64,000 nt of DNA from a virus: the IMG/VR virus record IMGVR_UViG_3300042398_001385, positions 64,001 through 128,000 of that record; one strand, written 5' to 3'. This document shows positions 18,171 to 37,147 of the stretch, one piece after another. Every line of letters begins with the position of its first letter. Position 1 is the stretch's first letter. Both the position numbers and the translations under genes were made by a program. The notes under the pieces were generated by a model. The model did not search any database, was not told where the DNA came from, and saw nothing but the letters and a program-made list of their open reading frames with translations.

Positions 18171-19814
18171 TTAAATAGCAGGTTCTGCTCCTGTTGCTTC
18201 GCCTCCAGTAGCTTCAGCTTCTGCTCCAGTAGCTCCAGCTTCTGCTCCAGTAGCTCCAGTAGCCCCAGCTTTACCTTCTTCCTCGGATTTTTTAACGTAG
18301 GATTTATTTAACTGTATATCCTCATAGTTAAGATCTAACCATCTCTCTATCATAAAATCTTGATCAAAAAATTGAACCTCTTCTTCGTTTACTGTTTCTT
18401 TTATTTCTCCCATTGCAGTAATGAAATCAATTTTTTTGATCAGTTGTTCTATTTCTCTAGATTCACCAAATAAATTATCACTTTCAAATTTAACACCTAT
18501 TTGACTTCTAAATTCAGCATCGTTTTTAAGATCCGGAAATTCTAAGCACATTTGTATCCATAGAGGTTTTACTATAATCTCTTGGAATATAGATCTCAAT
18601 CTTGTTATAAATTTAGCAAATCTAACCTCATCCCTTTCTGCTCCTTCCGCCCCTGTTTTAAAAGTATTATTTGAGCCCATACCAAATCTTGAAGAGAATC
18701 TGTTATAAGGTATTTTGGAATCTTGTCTTAATTTATTATAGAAATAAACAACCGAGTCCATTATATTTAAATTAGGACCTTGAGCATTAAGTGTTTCTAC
18801 TTTTACTGATTCGCCTCCTTGCTGAGGGAAAAGATAGTTTTTATAGAATTGAAGATCAGGTCTTCCGTTTATAGCTAATTCTCCTGAGCTTGTATCTAGT
18901 TTAATATCCTCTTTATATACGGACATAAGTTCTCCAAGTGTCTCTTTAGCCTTTTGAGGAGCTTTACTTCCAATAGGAACTGTCATTTTAATCCTATACT
19001 GAGCATTCATAACATTCCATATTATTCTGGAGTGTTCCATAATCTTTAATAAGTTATAAGACCTTATTAATCTTTCAGTGTAAGATACTCTTGAAACAAC
19101 GTTGGCTTTAGCATATGAAATATAAATAACCTGAGCGTCTAATAATTTTCTTTGTCTAACAGTTTCTCCGTAATACTGCCACCATATAGTTTCTCTTGTT
19201 CCGTCAGGCTTTTTTTCGATAGCTGGAGTTAAACTAACAGCATCCAATTCTTTAAAACCAACTATTTCTTTACCGTCGTTTGAATATATTATCTCGAATG
19301 CTAAAAAACCTTCTACGATTAGTTGTCTAAAGTATTGCCATCCGGTTAATCCATTTGCAAAATTGTGGAGAACATATAGTTTTCTGAAATTCTTCCTCAT
19401 GGATTTTATAACATCATCCTTTAGATCCATATTCATTAAAGCTGGATGACAGAAAAAATTCTTCTCATCATATACTACTGCTTCGTCACATATAGTATCT
19501 AAAATGTATTCTATCTCAGCATTTAAAGCAAAGGTTCTTAGAAAATCCCTTTTGAATGGATAATCTTTATCAAAATATGCTATGTACTTTCTGTTTGATG
19601 TGTCTTGGGCTGCTATACTATAGATAAAGTCTTCGTCGCTATCAGTAAATCCAAATCTTTCTCTCATGCTGGCTTCAGATGCACCTATAGCCATGGAGTC
19701 TTGAATAACCATATCCTTATACTCCATCCCAAAAGATCCAAGACCACTAATAGTTTTTAATATCCTAGAGATATTCGGATTTATCTTTCCTAAATTATCT
19801 AAAAAGCCCGCCAT
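18171..19814 (-). CDS. gp20: Portal vertex protein, copy B (T4 gp20 family)
   Basis: EIEYILDTICDEA, GFLAFEII, SY-ERLIRSYNLLKIME, YFYNKLRQDSKIP-NRF, RDEVRFAKFI-RLR. Confidence 0.9.
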   Translation of the reverse strand: MAGFLDNLGKINPNISRILKTISGLGSFGMEYKDMVIQDSMAIGASEASMRERFGFTDSDEDFIYSIAAQDTSNRKYIAYFDKDYPFKRDFLRTFALNAEIEYILDTICDEAVVYDEKNFFCHPALMNMDLKDDVIKSMRKNFRKLYVLHNFANGLTGWQYFRQLIVEGFLAFEIIYSNDGKEIVGFKELDAVSLTPAIEKKPDGTRETIWWQYYGETVRQRKLLDAQVIYISYAKANVVSRVSYTERLIRSYNLLKIMEHSRIIWNVMNAQYRIKMTVPIGSKAPQKAKETLGELMSVYKEDIKLDTSSGELAINGRPDLQFYKNYLFPQQGGESVKVETLNAQGPNLNIMDSVVYFYNKLRQDSKIPYNRFSSRFGMGSNNTFKTGAEGAERDEVRFAKFITRLRSIFQEIIVKPLWIQMCLEFPDLKNDAEFRSQIGVKFESDNLFGESREIEQLIKKIDFITAMGEIKETVNEEEVQFFDQDFMIERWLDLNYEDIQLNKSYVKKSEEEGKAGATGATGAEAGATGAEAEATGGEATGAEPAI

Positions 19815-19817
19815 ATT

Positions 19818-21437
19818 TTATATTGTAATTTCTCCTCCTTCAGATCCAGCTTCACCTCCTGTTGCTCCTTCAGCTCCTGTTGCTCCTGCTTCAGCTGCTG
19901 CCGCTTCTTTCTTTTTCTCTGCTGCTTTTTCTTTGAATTTTTTATTTGTAACTAAATCCTGTCCTTTCACTCCTAAAAATCTATCAACTAAAAAGTCCAT
20001 ATTAAAATATTTTTTACCCTCTGAGTTCATTAGGGCGGATATTTTTATAACCTGGTCTTTTCTAGCAGCTAATACCTCCATTTCTTTTGCTTCCCTAAAT
20101 ATATTTTCTTTTACATAATCTAAACCAAATTCGGATTTAATTATGTAATCTTTCTTAAGATGCGGAAAGTCTAAGCAGAATTGTACCCATAGTGGCTTCA
20201 TTAATATCTCTTGATATATTGACCTTAATCTGTTAATAAATTTAGCAAATCTTATTTCCTCCTGATCCAATCCTTCTGCTGTAAAAGTAATTGTTCCTTC
20301 AGATCCTGCTTCTTCTCTACCAAATCTAGTTGCTGGTATTTTAGAGTCCATTCTTAATTTATTTGCAAAATATTTAAGAACTGTTGTATCCGAAAATGCA
20401 GTTGCGTCTCCTCCCCCAGGAAGTGGCTGTATATCAGGAGTTCCATTAGGAGATGATGGCATTAAGTAATTTTTAAAGAATTGTATCTTTGGTTTTCCGT
20501 CGATTGTTAATTCTCCACTGCTATTATCTAATCTTATATCTTCTTTATAGATTGACATTAGTTCACCTAATGTTTGTTTTGCTTTTTGTGGTGATCTAGT
20601 ACCTATAGGAACTGTCATTGCCATCCTATATGAAGAGTTCATTACGTTCCAGATGATTCTTGTGTGCTCCATTATTCTTAGGAGATTAAATGACCGTATC
20701 ATTCTTTCACAGTAACTAACTCTTGAAGATGTTCCACCTCCCTTAGCATAACTTATATAAATTATCTGGGAGTCATATAGTTTTCTAGTCAAAGATGGGT
20801 TATCTGGATATTGTATCCATATATCAATAAAAGATCCATCTGGCTGTGCCTCTACTGTTGGTATTAGTGACCATGGATCCAATTCTTTGAATCCAACAAT
20901 ATTCTTACCTTTTTTATCAAATACGATTTCAAAAGCTAGAATACCATCAACTAGAAATTTTCTGAATAAATGCCAAGCTGATATATCTTGATTAAATCCA
21001 AAAAGATTATATACCTCTTTATACCTCTTTTGTACTTTTTCGTAAGTTTCCTCATTAACATCATCATGTTGCATGAAAGAGAAATAAGCCCAAAAGTTTT
21101 TGTCATCATATACTATTGATTCGTCGCATATAGTATCAAGAATAAATTCTATTTCTGGATTCTGAGAAAATCCTTGTAGATAATGTCTTTTGTTTTTATA
21201 GTCCTTATCAAAATAAGCTATGTATTGTTTAGTGGTAGTATCTGCTCTTCTTAATCCAAAAAGAAAAGATTCATCCTTTATCCCTCCCTTTTGTAGAAAT
21301 TGAGCTTCTGTTATACCTACTGCTTGAGAATTTTTAACTACAAGATCTTCGTAGGCCATACCGAAACTACCCACTTTCTTTATACTATCTAAAATAGAAC
21401 TAAAGAATGATTTTTTATCGTCAGTAAATCCAGCCAT
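19818..21437 (-). CDS. gp20: Portal vertex protein, copy A (T4 gp20 family)
   Basis: Same gp20 motifs (EIEFILDTICDE, DGILAFEI, LKYFANKLRMDSKIP, EEIRFAKFINRLR). Confidence 0.9.
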   Translation of the reverse strand: MAGFTDDKKSFFSSILDSIKKVGSFGMAYEDLVVKNSQAVGITEAQFLQKGGIKDESFLFGLRRADTTTKQYIAYFDKDYKNKRHYLQGFSQNPEIEFILDTICDESIVYDDKNFWAYFSFMQHDDVNEETYEKVQKRYKEVYNLFGFNQDISAWHLFRKFLVDGILAFEIVFDKKGKNIVGFKELDPWSLIPTVEAQPDGSFIDIWIQYPDNPSLTRKLYDSQIIYISYAKGGGTSSRVSYCERMIRSFNLLRIMEHTRIIWNVMNSSYRMAMTVPIGTRSPQKAKQTLGELMSIYKEDIRLDNSSGELTIDGKPKIQFFKNYLMPSSPNGTPDIQPLPGGGDATAFSDTTVLKYFANKLRMDSKIPATRFGREEAGSEGTITFTAEGLDQEEIRFAKFINRLRSIYQEILMKPLWVQFCLDFPHLKKDYIIKSEFGLDYVKENIFREAKEMEVLAARKDQVIKISALMNSEGKKYFNMDFLVDRFLGVKGQDLVTNKKFKEKAAEKKKEAAAAEAGATGAEGATGGEAGSEGGEITI

Positions 21438-22517: not shown

Positions 22518-22874
22518 TTATACATTATAGTTGGAATTTTCCTCCCTTACTATTCTAGAAAAAGGAATAGTTTTCGGTGACTTAGGTGGATGAATTTTTT
22601 TCCATCCTTTTTTCATTCCGTTATGTGCTATTTGGGATATAAAGGCAAAAGGATTATCAGACTTTGCTGGATCGTATCTATTCCAATACTTAACTAGATC
22701 TTCAAGACCAGATGATATGCAATCTTCTTTGTCTTCGTTATCTCTATAAGAATGTGTCTTAGACATTCCGTTTACTATAAGAGTAAACATTTTAACGGTC
22801 TCATCAGTTAGTTGACCTTTTTCTTTACTTTCGAGGAGAGCTCTTTTTAGCTCTTTGTTTTTTACGTATATCAT
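22518..22874 (-). CDS. gp55: Late transcription sigma factor (T4 gp55-like)
   Basis: YVKNKEL...YDPAKSDNPFAFISQI motif. Confidence 0.88.
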   Translation of the reverse strand: MIYVKNKELKRALLESKEKGQLTDETVKMFTLIVNGMSKTHSYRDNEDKEDCISSGLEDLVKYWNRYDPAKSDNPFAFISQIAHNGMKKGWKKIHPPKSPKTIPFSRIVREENSNYNV

Positions 22875-23125
22875 TCTTCTTGCGGTGGAATATTATTTTG
22901 GAGCTTTTCTATTTGTTTTTCTAAATTAACCCTTAATTCTTCCAAATTTTTCCTCGAATTTCTAATTGTGTCTATACCTATCTTACCATTTTCTTCACTA
23001 GAAGTTTCTAATTCTTTTATTTTTTCTAGACAATTTTTCAAATCGTCTAAAACAAAATTGAGTCTGTTACCAATTCCCTCATCCGGGTCATTAGCAACAG
23101 ACTCATTTATTCCTTTTGTATTTAC
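22871..23125 (-). CDS. 84-aa coiled-coil extension of the 778-aa protein, reached by -1 frameshift
   Basis: Open -1 frame VNTKGINESVANDPDEG...LEKQIEKLQNNIPPQEE*, no in-frame ATG, begins at A_AAA_AAG-TAA, fills the gap exactly, TGA overlaps the gp55 ATG. Confidence 0.75.
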   Translation of the reverse strand, partial: VNTKGINESVANDPDEGIGNRLNFVLDDLKNCLEKIKELETSSEENGKIGIDTIRNSRKNLEELRVNLEKQIEKLQNNIPPQEE

Positions 23126-23131
23126 TTTTTT
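23052..23131 (-). promoter_or_regulatory. -1 programmed ribosomal frameshift signal (slippery heptamer plus 3' stem-loop)
   Basis: A AAA AAG at 23131-23125; 15-bp stem 23104-23090/23074-23060; lower stem ACAAAA/TTTTGT starts 5 nt after the heptamer. Confidence 0.7.
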
Positions 23132-25458
23132 TTTGTTTTTGGAGCGGAAGAAAAATTAGACACTTTGTCATTTTCAGCAAATCTTCTTCCATTTTTTTTG
23201 CTGTTTCCGTGTGCATCAGCAAAATTAAAATCGTCCTCGTCTTCCATGAATTTTTTAGACTTTTCGGATTTTCCTTTAGGAGCTTTCTCTATGTGAGAAT
23301 TTTTTTGATTCTCCTTAAGTGTAGCTAGATTCATGTTTTTAAGATCCTGTATAAATTTAGAAGATCCTTTAATAGAAGCGCTAGGAGCTTTAGCTAAATC
23401 TAGATTATCTAGAGTATCTATAAACTTTTTACCACTTCCGACTTTTCCTTTGGTAGGAAGATCTGCCATATTAGCAGATTTTGATTTAACACCTCTACCA
23501 GTTAAAGGTGCTGATTTACCGCTCTTTGGTAAACCTGCCATAGTTCCTTTTTCATTGTTTATAAACTTAGAAGAAGATCCTGTTTTTTTATCTGGTGCTT
23601 GAGCCATGTGTTTTTTAGAAAGATTCTCTATTCTAGAATCTTTGTGTGATCCTCCTCTGTTTCCTGGAGCATTAGCAAAATTCTGATTTGATTCATTAGC
23701 AAAATCTTCAGTATATTCGATATCTAACTGAGGTGCTTTAATATCATATCTGTCTATTTCGTCATCCAGATCTTCAACATCAGAGAAGAAGTATTCCCCT
23801 GTTTTACCCTCTTTAAAAAGAATAGTATAAGTTTTAGAGCTTCCGTCTACTCCAATAACTCTTCCTTTAACGCCATTTCTTTTTATTCTAACCTCAGTAT
23901 CAATAGGATATCCAAGGTCTTCATTCATTGAAGGAAGTTCTTTAGCTTTACTTTCAAATCTTGAAATCTCTAGGTTGATTTGATTCCATCTGTCTTTTAG
24001 GGATTCGATTTCATTTTCAATGCTTTCTTCTAAAGTTACAAGTTCATCAGATTTAGCGATAAGAGGATTTTCTTTTTTAGCAACATCCAATTTTCTTAGT
24101 TCGCCTTCTAATACATCGATATTTTTGATAATCTCTTTTTTATCATTCTTCATTATACTCAAGAATGCTTGTTCTCCTTCTAAAAATTCTGTAAGAGATT
24201 CAGTGATATCATATTTAATAAAGTCTTTAACTATATTAATAGCTTGAGTTGCATTAGCTTCGTATATTTTATTTAATCTCATAGCTGGATTAACTGTTTG
24301 TACATAAATACCAGCTTCTGTTTTAAATATATTAGCCTCTACGTTTTCAAAAACTCTAGATTTTATTTTTTTACCAAAATCAAGATCTATAATTTCCTCA
24401 GCATTACTAGCTACAAATACTGCTTTAGCTATTTTGTGGTTTGAACTTTCTAAAAGATTGTTTGTACTTACACTAACTGCAAGTGGAAGATCATCTTCGT
24501 TAATTCTTTTTCCGTCAAAATAAACCTCCTTAGATTCGTTTGTAAATACTATCTCTACCTTATTATTTCCAATATTTAATGATATCTTATTGTTATCTAT
24601 TTTAACGTCTCTATCGCTTATAATTTGAGCCTGATCAGCTAGTTCTTGTGGAACTTCATCCATGCTACATTCTTGAATAACTTGTGTGTTCTGATCTATC
24701 TTTAAAAATTTACCAGATGAGTAAAATACTGTCTCTTCATTTTCGTTTAAATAGATAGGTGAATAAAGATTGCTTATTTCACAAACGTTATTATCAAATC
24801 CAACATTGAATTTTCCTGTATTTTCATTTTCGTATATAGATAAGAAACTAACAAGATTTCTAACCATTGGATTAAATCCAAATCTTTTAAGACCATGCAC
24901 AAGAGATTCTGTTGATTTAGTTTCAGAAACTAACCATCCTTTCATTTGATCTGTAGCATCGGAAAATAAATCCCTTCCTGGACTATTTCTCATAGTTTCG
25001 TAAGTCTTAATAACCTCAATCTCTCTTTTTCTGTTTTCTAATATTCTATTTAAGTTCTCTAGAACTGGAGTTACTGCATTTTCCCAAGAAAACGATTTAA
25101 GATCGTTTATAAATCCTTCAATTACAAATGATTCAGATATTCCTTTCCCAACCAATATATGATCATATTTTTCTAACATAATCTTACCAGCTGGTATCTC
25201 ATTTAAAGTTGAATTTTTTAAAGCCGAAACTGTATTTATTAGACCAAAGCTAAAAGAAATACCTTTATTAGAAGGTCTAGATGAAGAACCATGTGATTGT
25301 GATTCCTTAAGCATTTGAGCAGTTGAGCCTCCAAGGAAAGTAGAAGCAACAGGTTTTTTTGTTGCTCCTAATCCAGCCCATTCTCTTAAAGAATCTGCAG
25401 CATTTTTAGAAGTCTCCATATTTAGTCTATTGATCTCTGGATTAATATTTTTTTCCAT
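23122..25458 (-). CDS. Large head-associated (prohead core/internal-like) protein with coiled coil, SH3-like domain and basic C-terminal repeats
   Basis: Many [LIM]-x-E motifs (MLKE, ISE, LLE, ITE, LKE), GATATATA upstream, located in the head gene cluster; function is inferred. Confidence 0.6.
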   Translation of the reverse strand: MEKNINPEINRLNMETSKNAADSLREWAGLGATKKPVASTFLGGSTAQMLKESQSHGSSSRPSNKGISFSFGLINTVSALKNSTLNEIPAGKIMLEKYDHILVGKGISESFVIEGFINDLKSFSWENAVTPVLENLNRILENRKREIEVIKTYETMRNSPGRDLFSDATDQMKGWLVSETKSTESLVHGLKRFGFNPMVRNLVSFLSIYENENTGKFNVGFDNNVCEISNLYSPIYLNENEETVFYSSGKFLKIDQNTQVIQECSMDEVPQELADQAQIISDRDVKIDNNKISLNIGNNKVEIVFTNESKEVYFDGKRINEDDLPLAVSVSTNNLLESSNHKIAKAVFVASNAEEIIDLDFGKKIKSRVFENVEANIFKTEAGIYVQTVNPAMRLNKIYEANATQAINIVKDFIKYDITESLTEFLEGEQAFLSIMKNDKKEIIKNIDVLEGELRKLDVAKKENPLIAKSDELVTLEESIENEIESLKDRWNQINLEISRFESKAKELPSMNEDLGYPIDTEVRIKRNGVKGRVIGVDGSSKTYTILFKEGKTGEYFFSDVEDLDDEIDRYDIKAPQLDIEYTEDFANESNQNFANAPGNRGGSHKDSRIENLSKKHMAQAPDKKTGSSSKFINNEKGTMAGLPKSGKSAPLTGRGVKSKSANMADLPTKGKVGSGKKFIDTLDNLDLAKAPSASIKGSSKFIQDLKNMNLATLKENQKNSHIEKAPKGKSEKSKKFMEDEDDFNFADAHGNSKKNGRRFAENDKVSNFSSAPKTKKK

Positions 25459-25545
25459 TTGTAATTCGCTTTTTTAGTATATATCTAATCTTTTATAGAT
25501 TCCCTTTTGTTATTTATTTCCGATCGAAAGTATTTTTCAATTCTT

Positions 25546-34079: not shown

Positions 34080-35879
34080 CTAATTGAAATTTTTCTTATT
34101 AGGGATAACAATAAGAGGATTCTGTAATGTAGTATTTAATTGAGATAATAATCTCACCATACTTTTTATATCATCAGACATATCTTTGCTCATCTTATCA
34201 GATTCCTCTTTACTTTTAGTTTCTTCTGCTTTTTTACTGTCTTCTTTTTGTTTATCTGCACTCGTAGATGCGGTATTCATATCGGAGCTAGATGTGCTTG
34301 TAGCCGTACTAGTACTTGTGTTTGTATTAGCAGTTGAACCCGTCGTTGTTGTATTCGTTTGTGTTGTATTGGTTTCAGTCTTAGCAGGTTCACTAACACT
34401 ATTTAAATTTTGTACTTGTGTTTCTTTTATAGAAGTACTACTTGAAGAAGTTTCAGACTTTTGTTGATTTGTTTCTGGTTTTTTGTCTTCTATTTTGGTT
34501 TCTTTGGTTTCTTTCTTTGCTTTTTCTGTTGTTCCTTTAGAATCCCCATCTTTTTTATCCTCAGCTTTCTTCGAGAGTCCTAAATCTTGTAATATTTTAT
34601 CCTGTGCAGCTTCTACCTCAGCATTTCCTTTTCCTTTTTTAGATTTAGATTTATCATCCTCTCCGCCTCCTTCACCCTCTTTTTTATCTCCTCCTATTTT
34701 TATTCCTAGAGATTCTAAAATTGCATCTTGTGCTTTCTCTGTATTTGATTTCTCACCCTTTTTAGTCTTCTCATTACCTTTTTTTGTATCCTCAACTTTT
34801 GTTGCTCCTGTTGCTCCTGTTCCTCCAGTTGTACTCTTATTTGTTAAATTTTCTACTGACGTCGAAGAAGCGGGACCTGTAGGACCAGTAGATGATTTTT
34901 CAACATTGGATGTAGTGGAAGATCCCTCAACAGGTTTTACGTCTCCTGTTGTTCCTGCTGTTCCTGTGGGGGTATTTGTAGAAGCAGGTCCAGTAGCAGA
35001 TGGAGATTTCTTCTCCTCAATTTTTGTCTCATCCGTTTTTGTCTTCGGTTCTTCCTTTTTAGCCTCCTGTGCAGCTTCTTTTATTACATCCTCCGCTTTT
35101 TTTCCTTCTTTTTTTTCTATTAGTTTTTTTATGTTATCATCATATGCTTTTGACATTTTGGTAATACTCTCATTAGTAAATCCTTCAGCTTCTAGAACTT
35201 TTGCTAAAGCAGAAATTATAGCCATATTTTCAGGAGTATATAAAATAGGAGCATATTGGCTAGCTGCAGGTTGAGACTTTACCCCAAAATAGTCTAGTAC
35301 CTCAGAAAACTTATCGAGTAGTGGATCGAATTTAAGTTTTTCGTCCTTTATTTTACTGTCAAAATCGCTTTGTACGTCCTCATATGAATCGAATTCCATT
35401 ACATCTCTTAGTCCCAGATTTTCTACTATATCAGTAACCCTACCGTCTTTAAGAAGTTTAGCATTTCCTATTTTATTTTCTGCAGCTTGCTTAGACATTT
35501 CAAAAATCTCCTTCCCGTCTATAGTTTCCCCTTTATCTATTTTTCTGCCTATTGTACTCCTGTCCGAATCTGCACCTGAATAAGCTTCTGTAAAATATAT
35601 AGCTTTGGTGTCTATTCCCTCCCCTAATTCTTTTAAATTCTTCTCAAAGGATTCATTATAGAACTTTCTGGCATTTTTTATAACCTCGTCTGCAGATTTT
35701 TTTTTAACCTTAAGATCCTCGTCAATTTCTTTACCAGTCAATCTGACATTTACTCCATCAGATACAACTCTTGCTTTGTCTTGTTCTTCGTATTTAGCTC
35801 TATCAAAAGCACCTTCACCTGCTTTAAAAACAGGAAATTCCGATCCTGCTGCTCCTGATGTTCCTGTTTCTCCTGCCAA
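34080..35879 (-). CDS. Tape-measure/baseplate-hub-like protein (gp29-like)
   Basis: TTG start; follows the tail tube and gp26/gp51-like genes; helical N-half and low-complexity K/T/S C-half. Confidence 0.5.
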   Translation of the reverse strand: MAGETGTSGAAGSEFPVFKAGEGAFDRAKYEEQDKARVVSDGVNVRLTGKEIDEDLKVKKKSADEVIKNARKFYNESFEKNLKELGEGIDTKAIYFTEAYSGADSDRSTIGRKIDKGETIDGKEIFEMSKQAAENKIGNAKLLKDGRVTDIVENLGLRDVMEFDSYEDVQSDFDSKIKDEKLKFDPLLDKFSEVLDYFGVKSQPAASQYAPILYTPENMAIISALAKVLEAEGFTNESITKMSKAYDDNIKKLIEKKEGKKAEDVIKEAAQEAKKEEPKTKTDETKIEEKKSPSATGPASTNTPTGTAGTTGDVKPVEGSSTTSNVEKSSTGPTGPASSTSVENLTNKSTTGGTGATGATKVEDTKKGNEKTKKGEKSNTEKAQDAILESLGIKIGGDKKEGEGGGEDDKSKSKKGKGNAEVEAAQDKILQDLGLSKKAEDKKDGDSKGTTEKAKKETKETKIEDKKPETNQQKSETSSSSTSIKETQVQNLNSVSEPAKTETNTTQTNTTTTGSTANTNTSTSTATSTSSSDMNTASTSADKQKEDSKKAEETKSKEESDKMSKDMSDDIKSMVRLLSQLNTTLQNPLIVIPNKKNFN

Positions 35880-36130: not shown

Positions 36131-37147
36131 AAGAGATCTGTACCCTCCGGGAAAGGAAATCTCTGCTGTGACCTCCCCATCACAGCTTTCACATTTACTA
36201 TTGATTCTTGATTTTGTAGCAAAGTTTATCTTCTCTGTTATTTGATCTGCAATAGAGAATTGCAGGGGTGACCATTCTCCAGAAGCTCTCTCGTATTGGT
36301 CATATAACCTCTCATCTAGTCCTCTCCAATCTGGAATAATAAAAGAAGCGACTTTAGCAAAACTTTCATCAAAAGTTTTTCCTTTTCTTCTTTTTTCTGA
36401 TAATATTTTTCTACATACTGTGGTTACTCCAACAGTAGGAATGTAAAGATTCATTTCTTCAGATCCATCCTTTGGTACAAACTTAAATGAATAGCTATCT
36501 CTGCTATATCTTTTTAATATTTCATCATCAACAACAAAGCTATCTAAGATGTTGGATCTTAGCTCTATCATATCGGGTATATTGCAATCTTCTTTTTTAC
36601 AATTTTTAGTTACTGGTAGAAGTATTTTATTTTCACCCCTAATAAAAGTAAAATCTCTAATTGCCATTATAATATAAAATCTATCCTCATACCATAAATC
36701 ATAAGATTCTAGAATACCTCCATTCCATCTTATCTTCATACATTTAGAAATTATGGTATTTAATTTATCGTCTAGATCTAATCTGTCGTCTTCATCTACT
36801 GTTGAGTAGTGTCTTATTTCTTTTACTCCCGCGGCTCTTATAGCAATCTCAAATCCGTCAGGATATCCAAATCCCTTAGAAGGAAGATTGGAAACTGGAA
36901 TATTTTTCCATTCTGATTCCATTCCTAAAGGATTCCTATTCATATTTACTTTCCCTAAATTACTATTTTGTGGTGTAATTGATTGGTTCCCAATAGGTTG
37001 CGTATCTTTTGTTGTATCTGATTCTTTATCTATCCAATTGGGTATTTCATATGATCCTACGTCCGGATCATTGTCATATTGGAATTTAGATTGCGCTTCT
37101 CTTTTATTGAGCTCATTAAGCAATTCGTCATTTGTATTATCTGCCAT
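36095..37147 (-). CDS. Baseplate hub/tail assembly chaperone (T4 gp26-like)
   Basis: LPSKG-GYP...IRA...E, DRFYII-AIR, C-terminal CxxC; lies between tube and tape measure. Confidence 0.7.
   Translation of the reverse strand: MADNTNDELLNELNKREAQSKFQYDNDPDVGSYEIPNWIDKESDTTKDTQPIGNQSITPQNSNLGKVNMNRNPLGMESEWKNIPVSNLPSKGFGYPDGFEIAIRAAGVKEIRHYSTVDEDDRLDLDDKLNTIISKCMKIRWNGGILESYDLWYEDRFYIIMAIRDFTFIRGENKILLPVTKNCKKEDCNIPDMIELRSNILDSFVVDDEILKRYSRDSYSFKFVPKDGSEEMNLYIPTVGVTTVCRKILSEKRRKGKTFDESFAKVASFIIPDWRGLDERLYDQYERASGEWSPLQFSIADQITEKINFATKSRINSKCESCDGEVTAEISFPGGYRSLFVISDIFSQLL

Follow-up and report, generated by a model that had tools for sequence, protein, structure and literature searches.

Does the product of a late phage gene end at its annotated stop codon, or does a fraction of it continue in another frame? 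This question is raised by a locus in IMG/VR virus record IMGVR_UViG_3300042398_001385, where a 778-amino-acid (aa) open reading frame (ORF) closes directly after a run of nine A's (A9) and the -1 frame stays open from there to the start of a gp55-like late sigma factor gene. The window analyzed here is the whole 64,000-nucleotide (nt) stretch at positions 64,001 to 128,000 of that record; coordinates are positions within this window, and the genes of the locus are all on the minus strand. A sequence-only reading of this DNA had proposed a programmed -1 frameshift giving isoforms of 778 and about 862 aa. Our comparison of homologous loci makes it highly probable that recoding is real and that a long isoform of ~862 aa would be made beside the 778-aa protein. 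The best explanation of the locus as a whole, which we put forward tentatively, is that recoding takes place at A9, with slippage of RNA polymerase as the slightly favored route, that a hairpin followed by a U-rich tract would act as a terminator, and that gp55 would be transcribed from its own promoter. The features on which the argument first depends are the following.

25458..23122, minus strand: 778-aa ORF (short isoform), with the 3' end ACA AAA AAA AAG TAA
23134..23126, minus strand: A9 run of nine A's, the putative recoding site
23131..23125, minus strand: heptamer A_AAA_AAG in the zero frame, its final G at 23125
23124..23122, minus strand: zero-frame stop codon TAA, adjoining the slip codon
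22871..23125, minus strand: -1 frame extension of 84 codons plus TGA, opening at GTA (23125), with the TGA at 22873..22871
22874..22518, minus strand: gp55-like late sigma factor ORF, 118 aa, with its ATG at 22874..22872

Conservation of the A9 run and the adjoining stop codon

The end of the 778-aa ORF was found as the sequence-only reading had described it, with the heptamer lying at the stop, and so was the downstream frame, which is open for 84 codons, contains no ATG, and has its UGA over the gp55 AUG. A scan of IMG/VR yielded 79 homologous loci, each on its own contig, of which 49 reach the end of the gene after dereplication. The combination of an A-run, an adjoining stop codon, and an open -1 frame recurs in 45 of these 49 non-redundant loci, much more often than chance could explain, and their main proteins are 31–99% identical. 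In all 45, every base from -10 to -2, counted back from the stop, is A, and the stop is at exactly the same place (TAA in 42 loci, TAG in 2, and TGA in 1). The base that follows the nine A's is G in 39 loci, C in 5, and A in 1, the total run being nine in 44 loci and ten in one, and the frame of the heptamer is correct in every A9 locus.

The codon 5' of the run is ACA, TCA, GCA, or AGA depending on the locus, and its third base is invariably A; the genome share of these A-ending Thr, Ser, and Ala codons is 0.33–0.42, and that of AGA is 0.80. Third positions of the preceding and flanking codons vary freely, with all four bases seen. The retention of A at this third position despite such modest codon usage indicates that all nine A's are selected, and not merely the six of the heptamer. 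At a control A9 run that encodes a KKKK motif in a 599-aa ORF (34080..35879), the lysines are kept and the run is interrupted by AAG in most homologues. The genome has four A9 runs on the sense strand, whereas its base composition would predict ~13; longer runs do not occur. Judging from the aligned loci, the A9 site at the end of the 778-aa gene is selected at the nucleotide level, beyond coding need. The three further sense-strand A9 runs inside ORFs lie at 35697-35705 (T9 on the plus strand), G000:C1 33956, and G000:C1 51486, and no alternative frame is open at any of them.

Coding potential of the -1 frame

The extension translates as VNTKGINESVAN...NNIPPQEE and includes the peptide GINESVANDPDEGIGNR; the sole common start codon within it is the TTG at 23041. 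Homologous loci were grouped by the similarity of the main protein to that of the window, which is 55–99% identity in group 1, ~40% in group 2, and 31% in group 3. The extensions of groups 1 and 2 are homologous and 80–86 aa long, whereas group 3, a distant clade, carries an unrelated extension of 56–59 aa on the same A9 site. The pairwise ratio of nonsynonymous to synonymous differences (pN/pS) in the -1 frame is 0.40 in group 1, 0.41 in group 2, and 0.23 in group 3, compared with 0.89–2.41 in the other two frames of the same alignments (0.89 and 1.47 in group 1). The first ~8 codons past the site, which overlap the stop region, have a pN/pS of 1.24 in group 1 and 0.50 in group 2, and the lack of constraint in group 1 is what would be expected of a linker. 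The constraint also reaches upstream of every candidate start codon, with a pN/pS of 0.43 across ESV..NRL and 0.33 across NFVLDDLKNCLEK. By these substitution patterns, the -1 frame is protein-coding and under purifying selection. In line with a linker, AlphaFold2 run on the extension alignment predicts a disordered segment of ~15 aa, followed by a helical hairpin (helices at residues 18–45 and 51–77) with a predicted local distance difference test (pLDDT) score of ~90.

No start codon of the extension is conserved across the homologous loci, and the starts that have been called for it fall at ten or more places, giving products of 45–113 aa. Gene callers overlook the site and report a 778-aa protein together with small ORFs of inconsistent length. 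An annotation rule can be drawn from the site itself, namely to look for A9 and an adjoining stop codon where genes of this 778-aa family end.

A short [I/L]-x-E motif is found just past the shift site in groups 1 and 2, at extension residues 6–9 (23101-23109, minus strand); it reads INES in the window and ISEH, ILEN, or ITEN in group 2. In group 1, one arm of the hairpin described below overlaps it. The likeness of the motif to the sites cut by the T4 prohead protease raises the possibility that the extension is clipped off.

Evidence for recoding and alternatives to it

Two clades lack the A9 run, one comprising L047-49 and the other L066/67/79. A quick maximum-likelihood tree places them apart, one as sister to group 1 and the other as sister to group 2, so that at least two losses are needed. 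In both clades, the -1 frame closes within 3–8 codons. The intergenic DNA of L047 aligns to the extension ORF at 71–74% identity and has stops in every frame, as a decayed remnant. The A9 site and the extension ORF have therefore been lost together, as recoding predicts and independent initiation does not. With an invariant A9 and stop, a coding -1 frame that has no conserved start, and an ORF that is absent where A9 was lost, the production of two isoforms is the only reading that fits, and the two products proposed in the sequence-only reading, of 778 and ~862 aa, are supported on these grounds.

The alternative that the extension, or its distal part, is a separate small gene, translated either from a non-ATG start, for instance the TTG at 23041, or through reinitiation by ribosomes that have terminated at the TAA, is very unlikely. 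That TTG would open a 56-aa ORF (22871..23041), ORFs of 45–75 aa have been called here in many metagenomes, and a promoter-like element lies inside the frame. However, among 28 group-1 loci, the Leu of LKNCL that this TTG encodes keeps the codon in just 16 and has TTA, CTT, or CTA in the rest, so that initiation at this codon, which the sequence-only reading had weighed against its own proposal, finds little footing among the homologues. The called starts vary by locus and the constraint extends 5' of all of them, three extension families share a frame that opens precisely at A9, both A9-less clades are without the ORF, and the codons that overlap the stop (GTA, CTA, and ATA) are not start codons. 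Still less probable, to the point of being negligible, is that the split reflects a homopolymer miscount in assembly or a recently broken gene. One additional A would indeed fuse the frames, and two singleton short ENA contigs have called proteins that imply other run lengths: P0123 reads ...YSKKKVKT..., which implies ten A's, and P0130 reads ...RKQKKVKT..., which implies eight. These variants could be assembly errors, population variants, or transcript-derived contigs. On the other hand, A9 and the stop are present in 79 IMG/VR contigs, and 16 public sequencing runs contain at least half of the sampled words of the stretch. A protein search found more than 150 homologous clusters, with ends at ~770–780 aa; among the 120 best clusters listed, none exceeds 785 aa, those covering the full query are ~740–785 aa long, and a fused form of ~860 aa does not occur. 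The split also persists over branch lengths of 0.3–1.7 changes per site with both frames under selection. Given this breadth of independent sequence, sequencing error is excluded and the artefact explanation, which the sequence-only reading had named as a risk, appears refuted for practical purposes.

The hairpin and the U-rich tract

Two RNA features lie downstream of the stop codon.

23060..23104, minus strand: conserved RNA hairpin with a 15-bp stem, arms at 23104..23090 and 23074..23060
23049..23059, minus strand: U-rich tract AAUUUUGUUUU, directly 3' of the hairpin

For the 85 nt 3' of the stop, the folding energy is -32.3 kcal/mol, which corresponds to z = -6.6 relative to shuffled sequences. 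Across 40 aligned loci, 92.6% of the cells of the stem are paired and 7 of its 15 pairs show compensatory double changes, a covariation score that was reached by none of 500 shuffles. One such change is from GAGUCUGUU/AACAGACUC in group 1 to GAGUUCGUU/AACGAACUC in group 2. The codons at the ends of the stem, the rare Leu CTC and Glu GAG, are fixed in 29 of 29 group-1 loci. The 15-bp upper stem noticed in the window is therefore real, and it covaries in groups 1 and 2. G-U pairs, which had been pointed out there as pairing only in the sense mRNA, are common in the stem across homologues and would be A-C mismatches on the other strand; their frequency fits an RNA structure of the sense strand. 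The lower stem ACAAAA/UUUUGU that had been proposed in addition survives in part: its sequence is not conserved, but a loose pairing of the A-rich spacer with the U-rich tract is general.

The hairpin begins 17 nt past the stop, and the stable stem ~19–20 nt past the slip codon. In groups 1 and 2, and likewise in the A9-less L047 and L066, a U-rich tract comes next to the hairpin; the plain hairpin and U tract of both A9-less clades occupy the corresponding position, ~20 nt past the stop. In group 3, no significant RNA structure was detected near the site (z -1.3 to -1.7). The U tract, the presence of the same element in relatives that do not recode, and its absence from group 3, which does, suggest that the hairpin and U tract more likely serve to end the late transcript, as an intrinsic terminator, than to stimulate frameshifting specifically, with a double role being possible. 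The hairpin was missed by a simple terminator scan with a loop limit of 8 nt, its loop of 15 nt being larger than usual. Downstream of the U tract, at 23026-23050 (minus strand), lies another, weaker hairpin, UUAGACGAUUU / AAAUUGUCUAG, which is restricted to group 1, with 72% of cells paired.

Polymerase slippage and ribosomal frameshifting as possible mechanisms

In the mechanism that we propose, most of the product would end at the TAA, and a fraction would go on in the -1 frame via the short linker into the helical hairpin, giving a long isoform of ~862 aa whose flexible tail would end in a small, folded helical domain. The switch would be the invariant A9: host RNA polymerase would slip on the tract to make some transcripts with ten A's, from which ordinary translation would read directly into the extension. 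A -1 slip by the ribosome, either at A_AAA_AAG or at the Lys codon beside the stop, may contribute or be the real route. Because polymerase slippage and a ribosomal shift yield an identical ...TKKKV... junction, the sequence alone cannot decide between them. If recoding is granted, we lean slightly toward polymerase slippage, which we hold to be about an even proposition; a ribosomal shift comes somewhat below that, and the small remainder goes to both acting together.

Bacterial RNA polymerase slips efficiently at a run length of nine A's, a property that Thermus dnaX exploits (PMC5009743). Slippage of this kind is slightly favored here by the conservation of nine A's, three more than the heptamer would need; by the variation of the base after the run among G, C, and A, which would matter little to the polymerase; and by group 3, which keeps A9-C-stop with no significant RNA structure. 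The ribosomal -1 frameshift of the sequence-only reading would instead be a tandem slip on A_AAA_AAG, or a slip of peptidyl-tRNA-Lys with the stop codon in the A site, with the downstream stem-loop pausing the ribosome and RNA polymerase uninvolved. We regard this as a serious possibility, though one that falls short of being probable, and several observations in its favor weigh at the same time against slippage of the polymerase. The heptamer is in frame in every locus, and the G that follows the run in 39 of 45 makes it the best bacterial heptamer, A_AAA_AAG being the most shift-prone in E. coli (PMC5009743, PMC4066793). The adjoining stop is kept in 45 of 45 loci, which polymerase slippage does not need and a "shifty stop" ribosomal mechanism does, even though group 1 shows no constraint on the overlapping -1 codons. 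Among its tRNA genes, the phage has one for tRNA-Lys(UUU) and none for tRNA-Lys(CUU), and nine A's would also permit the re-pairing of three tRNAs. Conservation of the hairpin is strong in groups 1 and 2, where compensatory changes occur, and pairing of the A-rich spacer with the U tract, when folded alone, puts the base of the helix 3–21 nt (median 8) from the slip codon. The three other ORF-internal A9 runs in the genome imply that slippage at such runs is tolerated or is not very efficient in the host, and a terminator within an ORF that needs read-through is awkward. The long protein and the A10 transcripts are both predictions. The RNA data consist of assembled contigs from four metatranscriptome runs, with small parts of the stretch in each; one such contig (22967..23134) takes in hairpin, stop, and A9 run, breaks off at 23134, the 5' edge of the run, with 5 unaligned letters, and is neutral as to slippage. 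A conserved upstream nascent-RNA hairpin, which would stimulate polymerase slippage, was sought among the homologues and none was found.

The ribosomal explanation has difficulties of its own. The three A's beyond the heptamer are invariant, including the synonymous third position. The stable stem is distant in the window, and the lower pairing that would bring the helix closer is weak and A-U rich. The site of group 3 is a poor bacterial heptamer, since E. coli ribosomes shift far less readily on A_AAA_AAC and A_AAA_AAA than on A_AAA_AAG (PMC5009743). Relatives without the slippery run retain a hairpin and U tract at the corresponding position. Finally, no conserved G-rich element of the Shine-Dalgarno type is present in the 24 nt upstream of the site in the 45 loci, although this feature is not obligatory for the wider class. 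Of the dnaX/IS3-type, hairpin-stimulated shift first proposed for the locus, the in-frame heptamer thus stands; the stimulated part is doubtful, given the retention of nine A's, the distance of the stem, the lack of a Shine-Dalgarno-like element, the hairpin and U tract of the A9-less relatives, and the lack of significant structure in group 3. Natural variants could separate polymerase from ribosomal slippage, as the homologues differ in the bases after the run, in having or lacking the hairpin, and, in some clades, in having lost the site.

The tRNA genes are outside the window (G000:C1:130531-139031) and number 26 in three clusters, including tRNA-Lys(UUU) and tRNA-Ile(UAU).

Transcription of gp55

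A promoter-like element lies between the hairpin and the late sigma factor gene.

22980..23008, minus strand: promoter-like element GAAAC-N18-TAAGAT, inside the extension ORF and 5' of gp55

The sequence-only reading had suggested that, if gp55 were translationally coupled to the extension, its output would be limited by the efficiency of frameshifting, creating a recoding-damped feedback loop on late transcription. Our results do not support this proposal. A late sigma factor must exist before late transcription, so a promoter of its own is to be expected for gp55, and GAAAC-N18-TA(A/G)(A/G)AT is present 5' of gp55 in all five clades, whether the DNA is coding or non-coding. In the A9-less clades (L047 and L066), the second part is TAAAAA and the spacer is 17–18 nt. 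The element is located within the extension ORF in groups 1 and 2, just past the extension in group 3, and in non-coding DNA in the A9-less clades. The T that starts the -10-like hexamer is at a synonymous third position (GGT or AGT) and is fixed in 29 of 29 group-1 and 12 of 12 group-2 loci, whereas the amino acid of that codon differs between the two groups (Gly versus Ser). With only seven hits in the genome on both strands, GAAAC-N18-TARRAT (where R is A or G) is too rare to be validated as a promoter class. Even so, gp55 is most likely transcribed from this promoter-like element. A similar GAAAC-type element precedes the ORF starting at 37147.

The extension stop overlaps the gp55 ATG in the window as ATGA, and an ATGA or TAATG overlap is present in most homologous loci and absent in several group-2 loci and in group 3. 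Preceded by a terminator-like hairpin and equipped with its own promoter-like element, gp55 could be expressed independently of frameshifting. Translational coupling of gp55 on read-through transcripts is possible.

A different link between the two processes is conceivable, in which slippage is coupled to antitermination, so that one event would both make the long isoform and extend transcription into the gp55, head-completion, and portal genes. On an unslipped transcript, the lead ribosome would halt at the TAA, 17–25 nt before the hairpin, and the terminator would form before gp55; with ten A's or a ribosomal -1 shift, the lead ribosome would enter the hairpin and block its folding. We consider this improbable. 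If true, the extension ORF would overprint a terminator and a promoter, and the recoding ratio would be turned into a transcriptional read-through ratio. The extension ORF in any case appears to combine the code for a folded domain with a covarying hairpin and a promoter-like element, in a compact set of overlapping constraints.

Comparison with known recoding systems

The closest parallel to the slippage proposed here is the dnaX gene of Thermus thermophilus, which produces tau and gamma. It has exactly nine sense-strand A's and needs no stimulator, and, as would be the case here, a mixed mRNA pool gives two forms that share their N-terminal part (PMC5009743). The slipped transcripts yield the shorter product in Thermus and would yield the longer one in the phage, and both the host and the gene family are unrelated. 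E. coli dnaX and the IS3 family share with the phage site an identical in-frame A_AAA_AAG and a stable 3' hairpin, covarying in the phage, but differ from it in that the phage site has no Shine-Dalgarno-like element, keeps nine A's rather than six, and has its strong stem ~19–20 nt away; in addition, the phage hairpin and U tract persist in relatives without a slippery site, and one recoding clade shows no comparable structure. In dnaX/IS3-type shifts, the typical spacing of the stimulator is ~5–9 nt.

Among phages, gene 10A/10B of T7 and G/GT of lambda use -1 frameshifts, at G_GUU_UUC-like and G_GGA_AAG sites, to place a C-terminal extension on a fraction of a virion or assembly protein. The present locus is similar in that a late phage gene would give a major short and a minor extended form, their ratio being set at the recoding site, and differs in its slip site and in that the 778-aa protein belongs to no known family. 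In Citrobacter rodentium tssM, poly-A transcriptional frameshifting also gives two length variants and rescues a prematurely interrupted gene (PMC4256274). The arrangement proposed here, unlike that of tssM, is ancient and conserved and adds a distinct folded domain.

No prior description of this recoding site was found in the papers searched. From its sequence conservation, the site appears to be a genuine new natural case of programmed frameshifting or RNA polymerase slippage, the general mechanism being already known. The lineage that would use it comprises freshwater T4-related phages and is large, uncultured, and abundant in lake metagenomes.

The 778-aa protein and its genomic neighborhood

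The parent contig of the window is 153 kb long with 32.5% G+C. One further feature belongs to the 5' end of the 778-aa ORF.

25478..25485, minus strand: GATATATA, a motif resembling T4 late promoters, 20 nt 5' of the ATG of the 778-aa ORF

As far as its letters go, GATATATA would fit a late-gene status of the 778-aa ORF and is a possible late-promoter motif of this phage. The position of the gene, with a collagen-like tail-fiber gene 5' of it, suggests a possible virion or assembly role for the protein. Its structural model (mean pLDDT 64) predicts an N-terminal helix, a helical domain (residues 73–214), a beta domain (226–401), a coiled-coil hairpin (429–504), a small beta barrel (522–563), and a disordered Lys-rich tail of ~210 aa. 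The tail (residues ~566–778; 23122-23760, minus strand) contains five or six ...KKF(I/M)...N(L/M)AxAP repeats. No family or function was matched to the protein in Pfam, PHROGs, a PDB profile search, the ESM Atlas, or Foldseek against PDB, and its structural neighbors are solely uncharacterized phage proteins, including those of Tenacibaculum phages PTm1 and pT24. The latter neighbors hint at a possible Bacteroidota host.

A DNA search against cultured and deposited phages gave zero matches. Apart from the homologous clusters described above, protein searches gave only weak, partial similarity to Lak megaphages and to a single uncultured phage of 462 kb (LR756500.1), whose homologue of 617 aa is without the tail, the A9 run, or the extension. 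The 118-aa ORF that follows the extension in the window matches the late sigma factor family phrog_234 (E 2e-16) and also Pfam Sigma70_r2. On its 3' side come, in order, a gp4-like head closure gene, a gp2-like DNA end protector gene, and two tandem T4-type portal (gp20) genes at 18171-21437 (minus strand). The two portal genes are intact and diverged, encode 539 and 547 aa with a 3-nt gap between them, and both match Pfam Portal_T4 (E ~1e-60); the portal of this phage is closest, at 33–44% identity over most of the length, to those of huge uncultured phages and Lak megaphages. The order of the homologue of the 778-aa protein, gp55, gp4, gp2, and portal is kept in LR756500.1, in which gp55 is followed by an inserted HNH homing-endonuclease gene and the homologue is preceded by a transposase gene.

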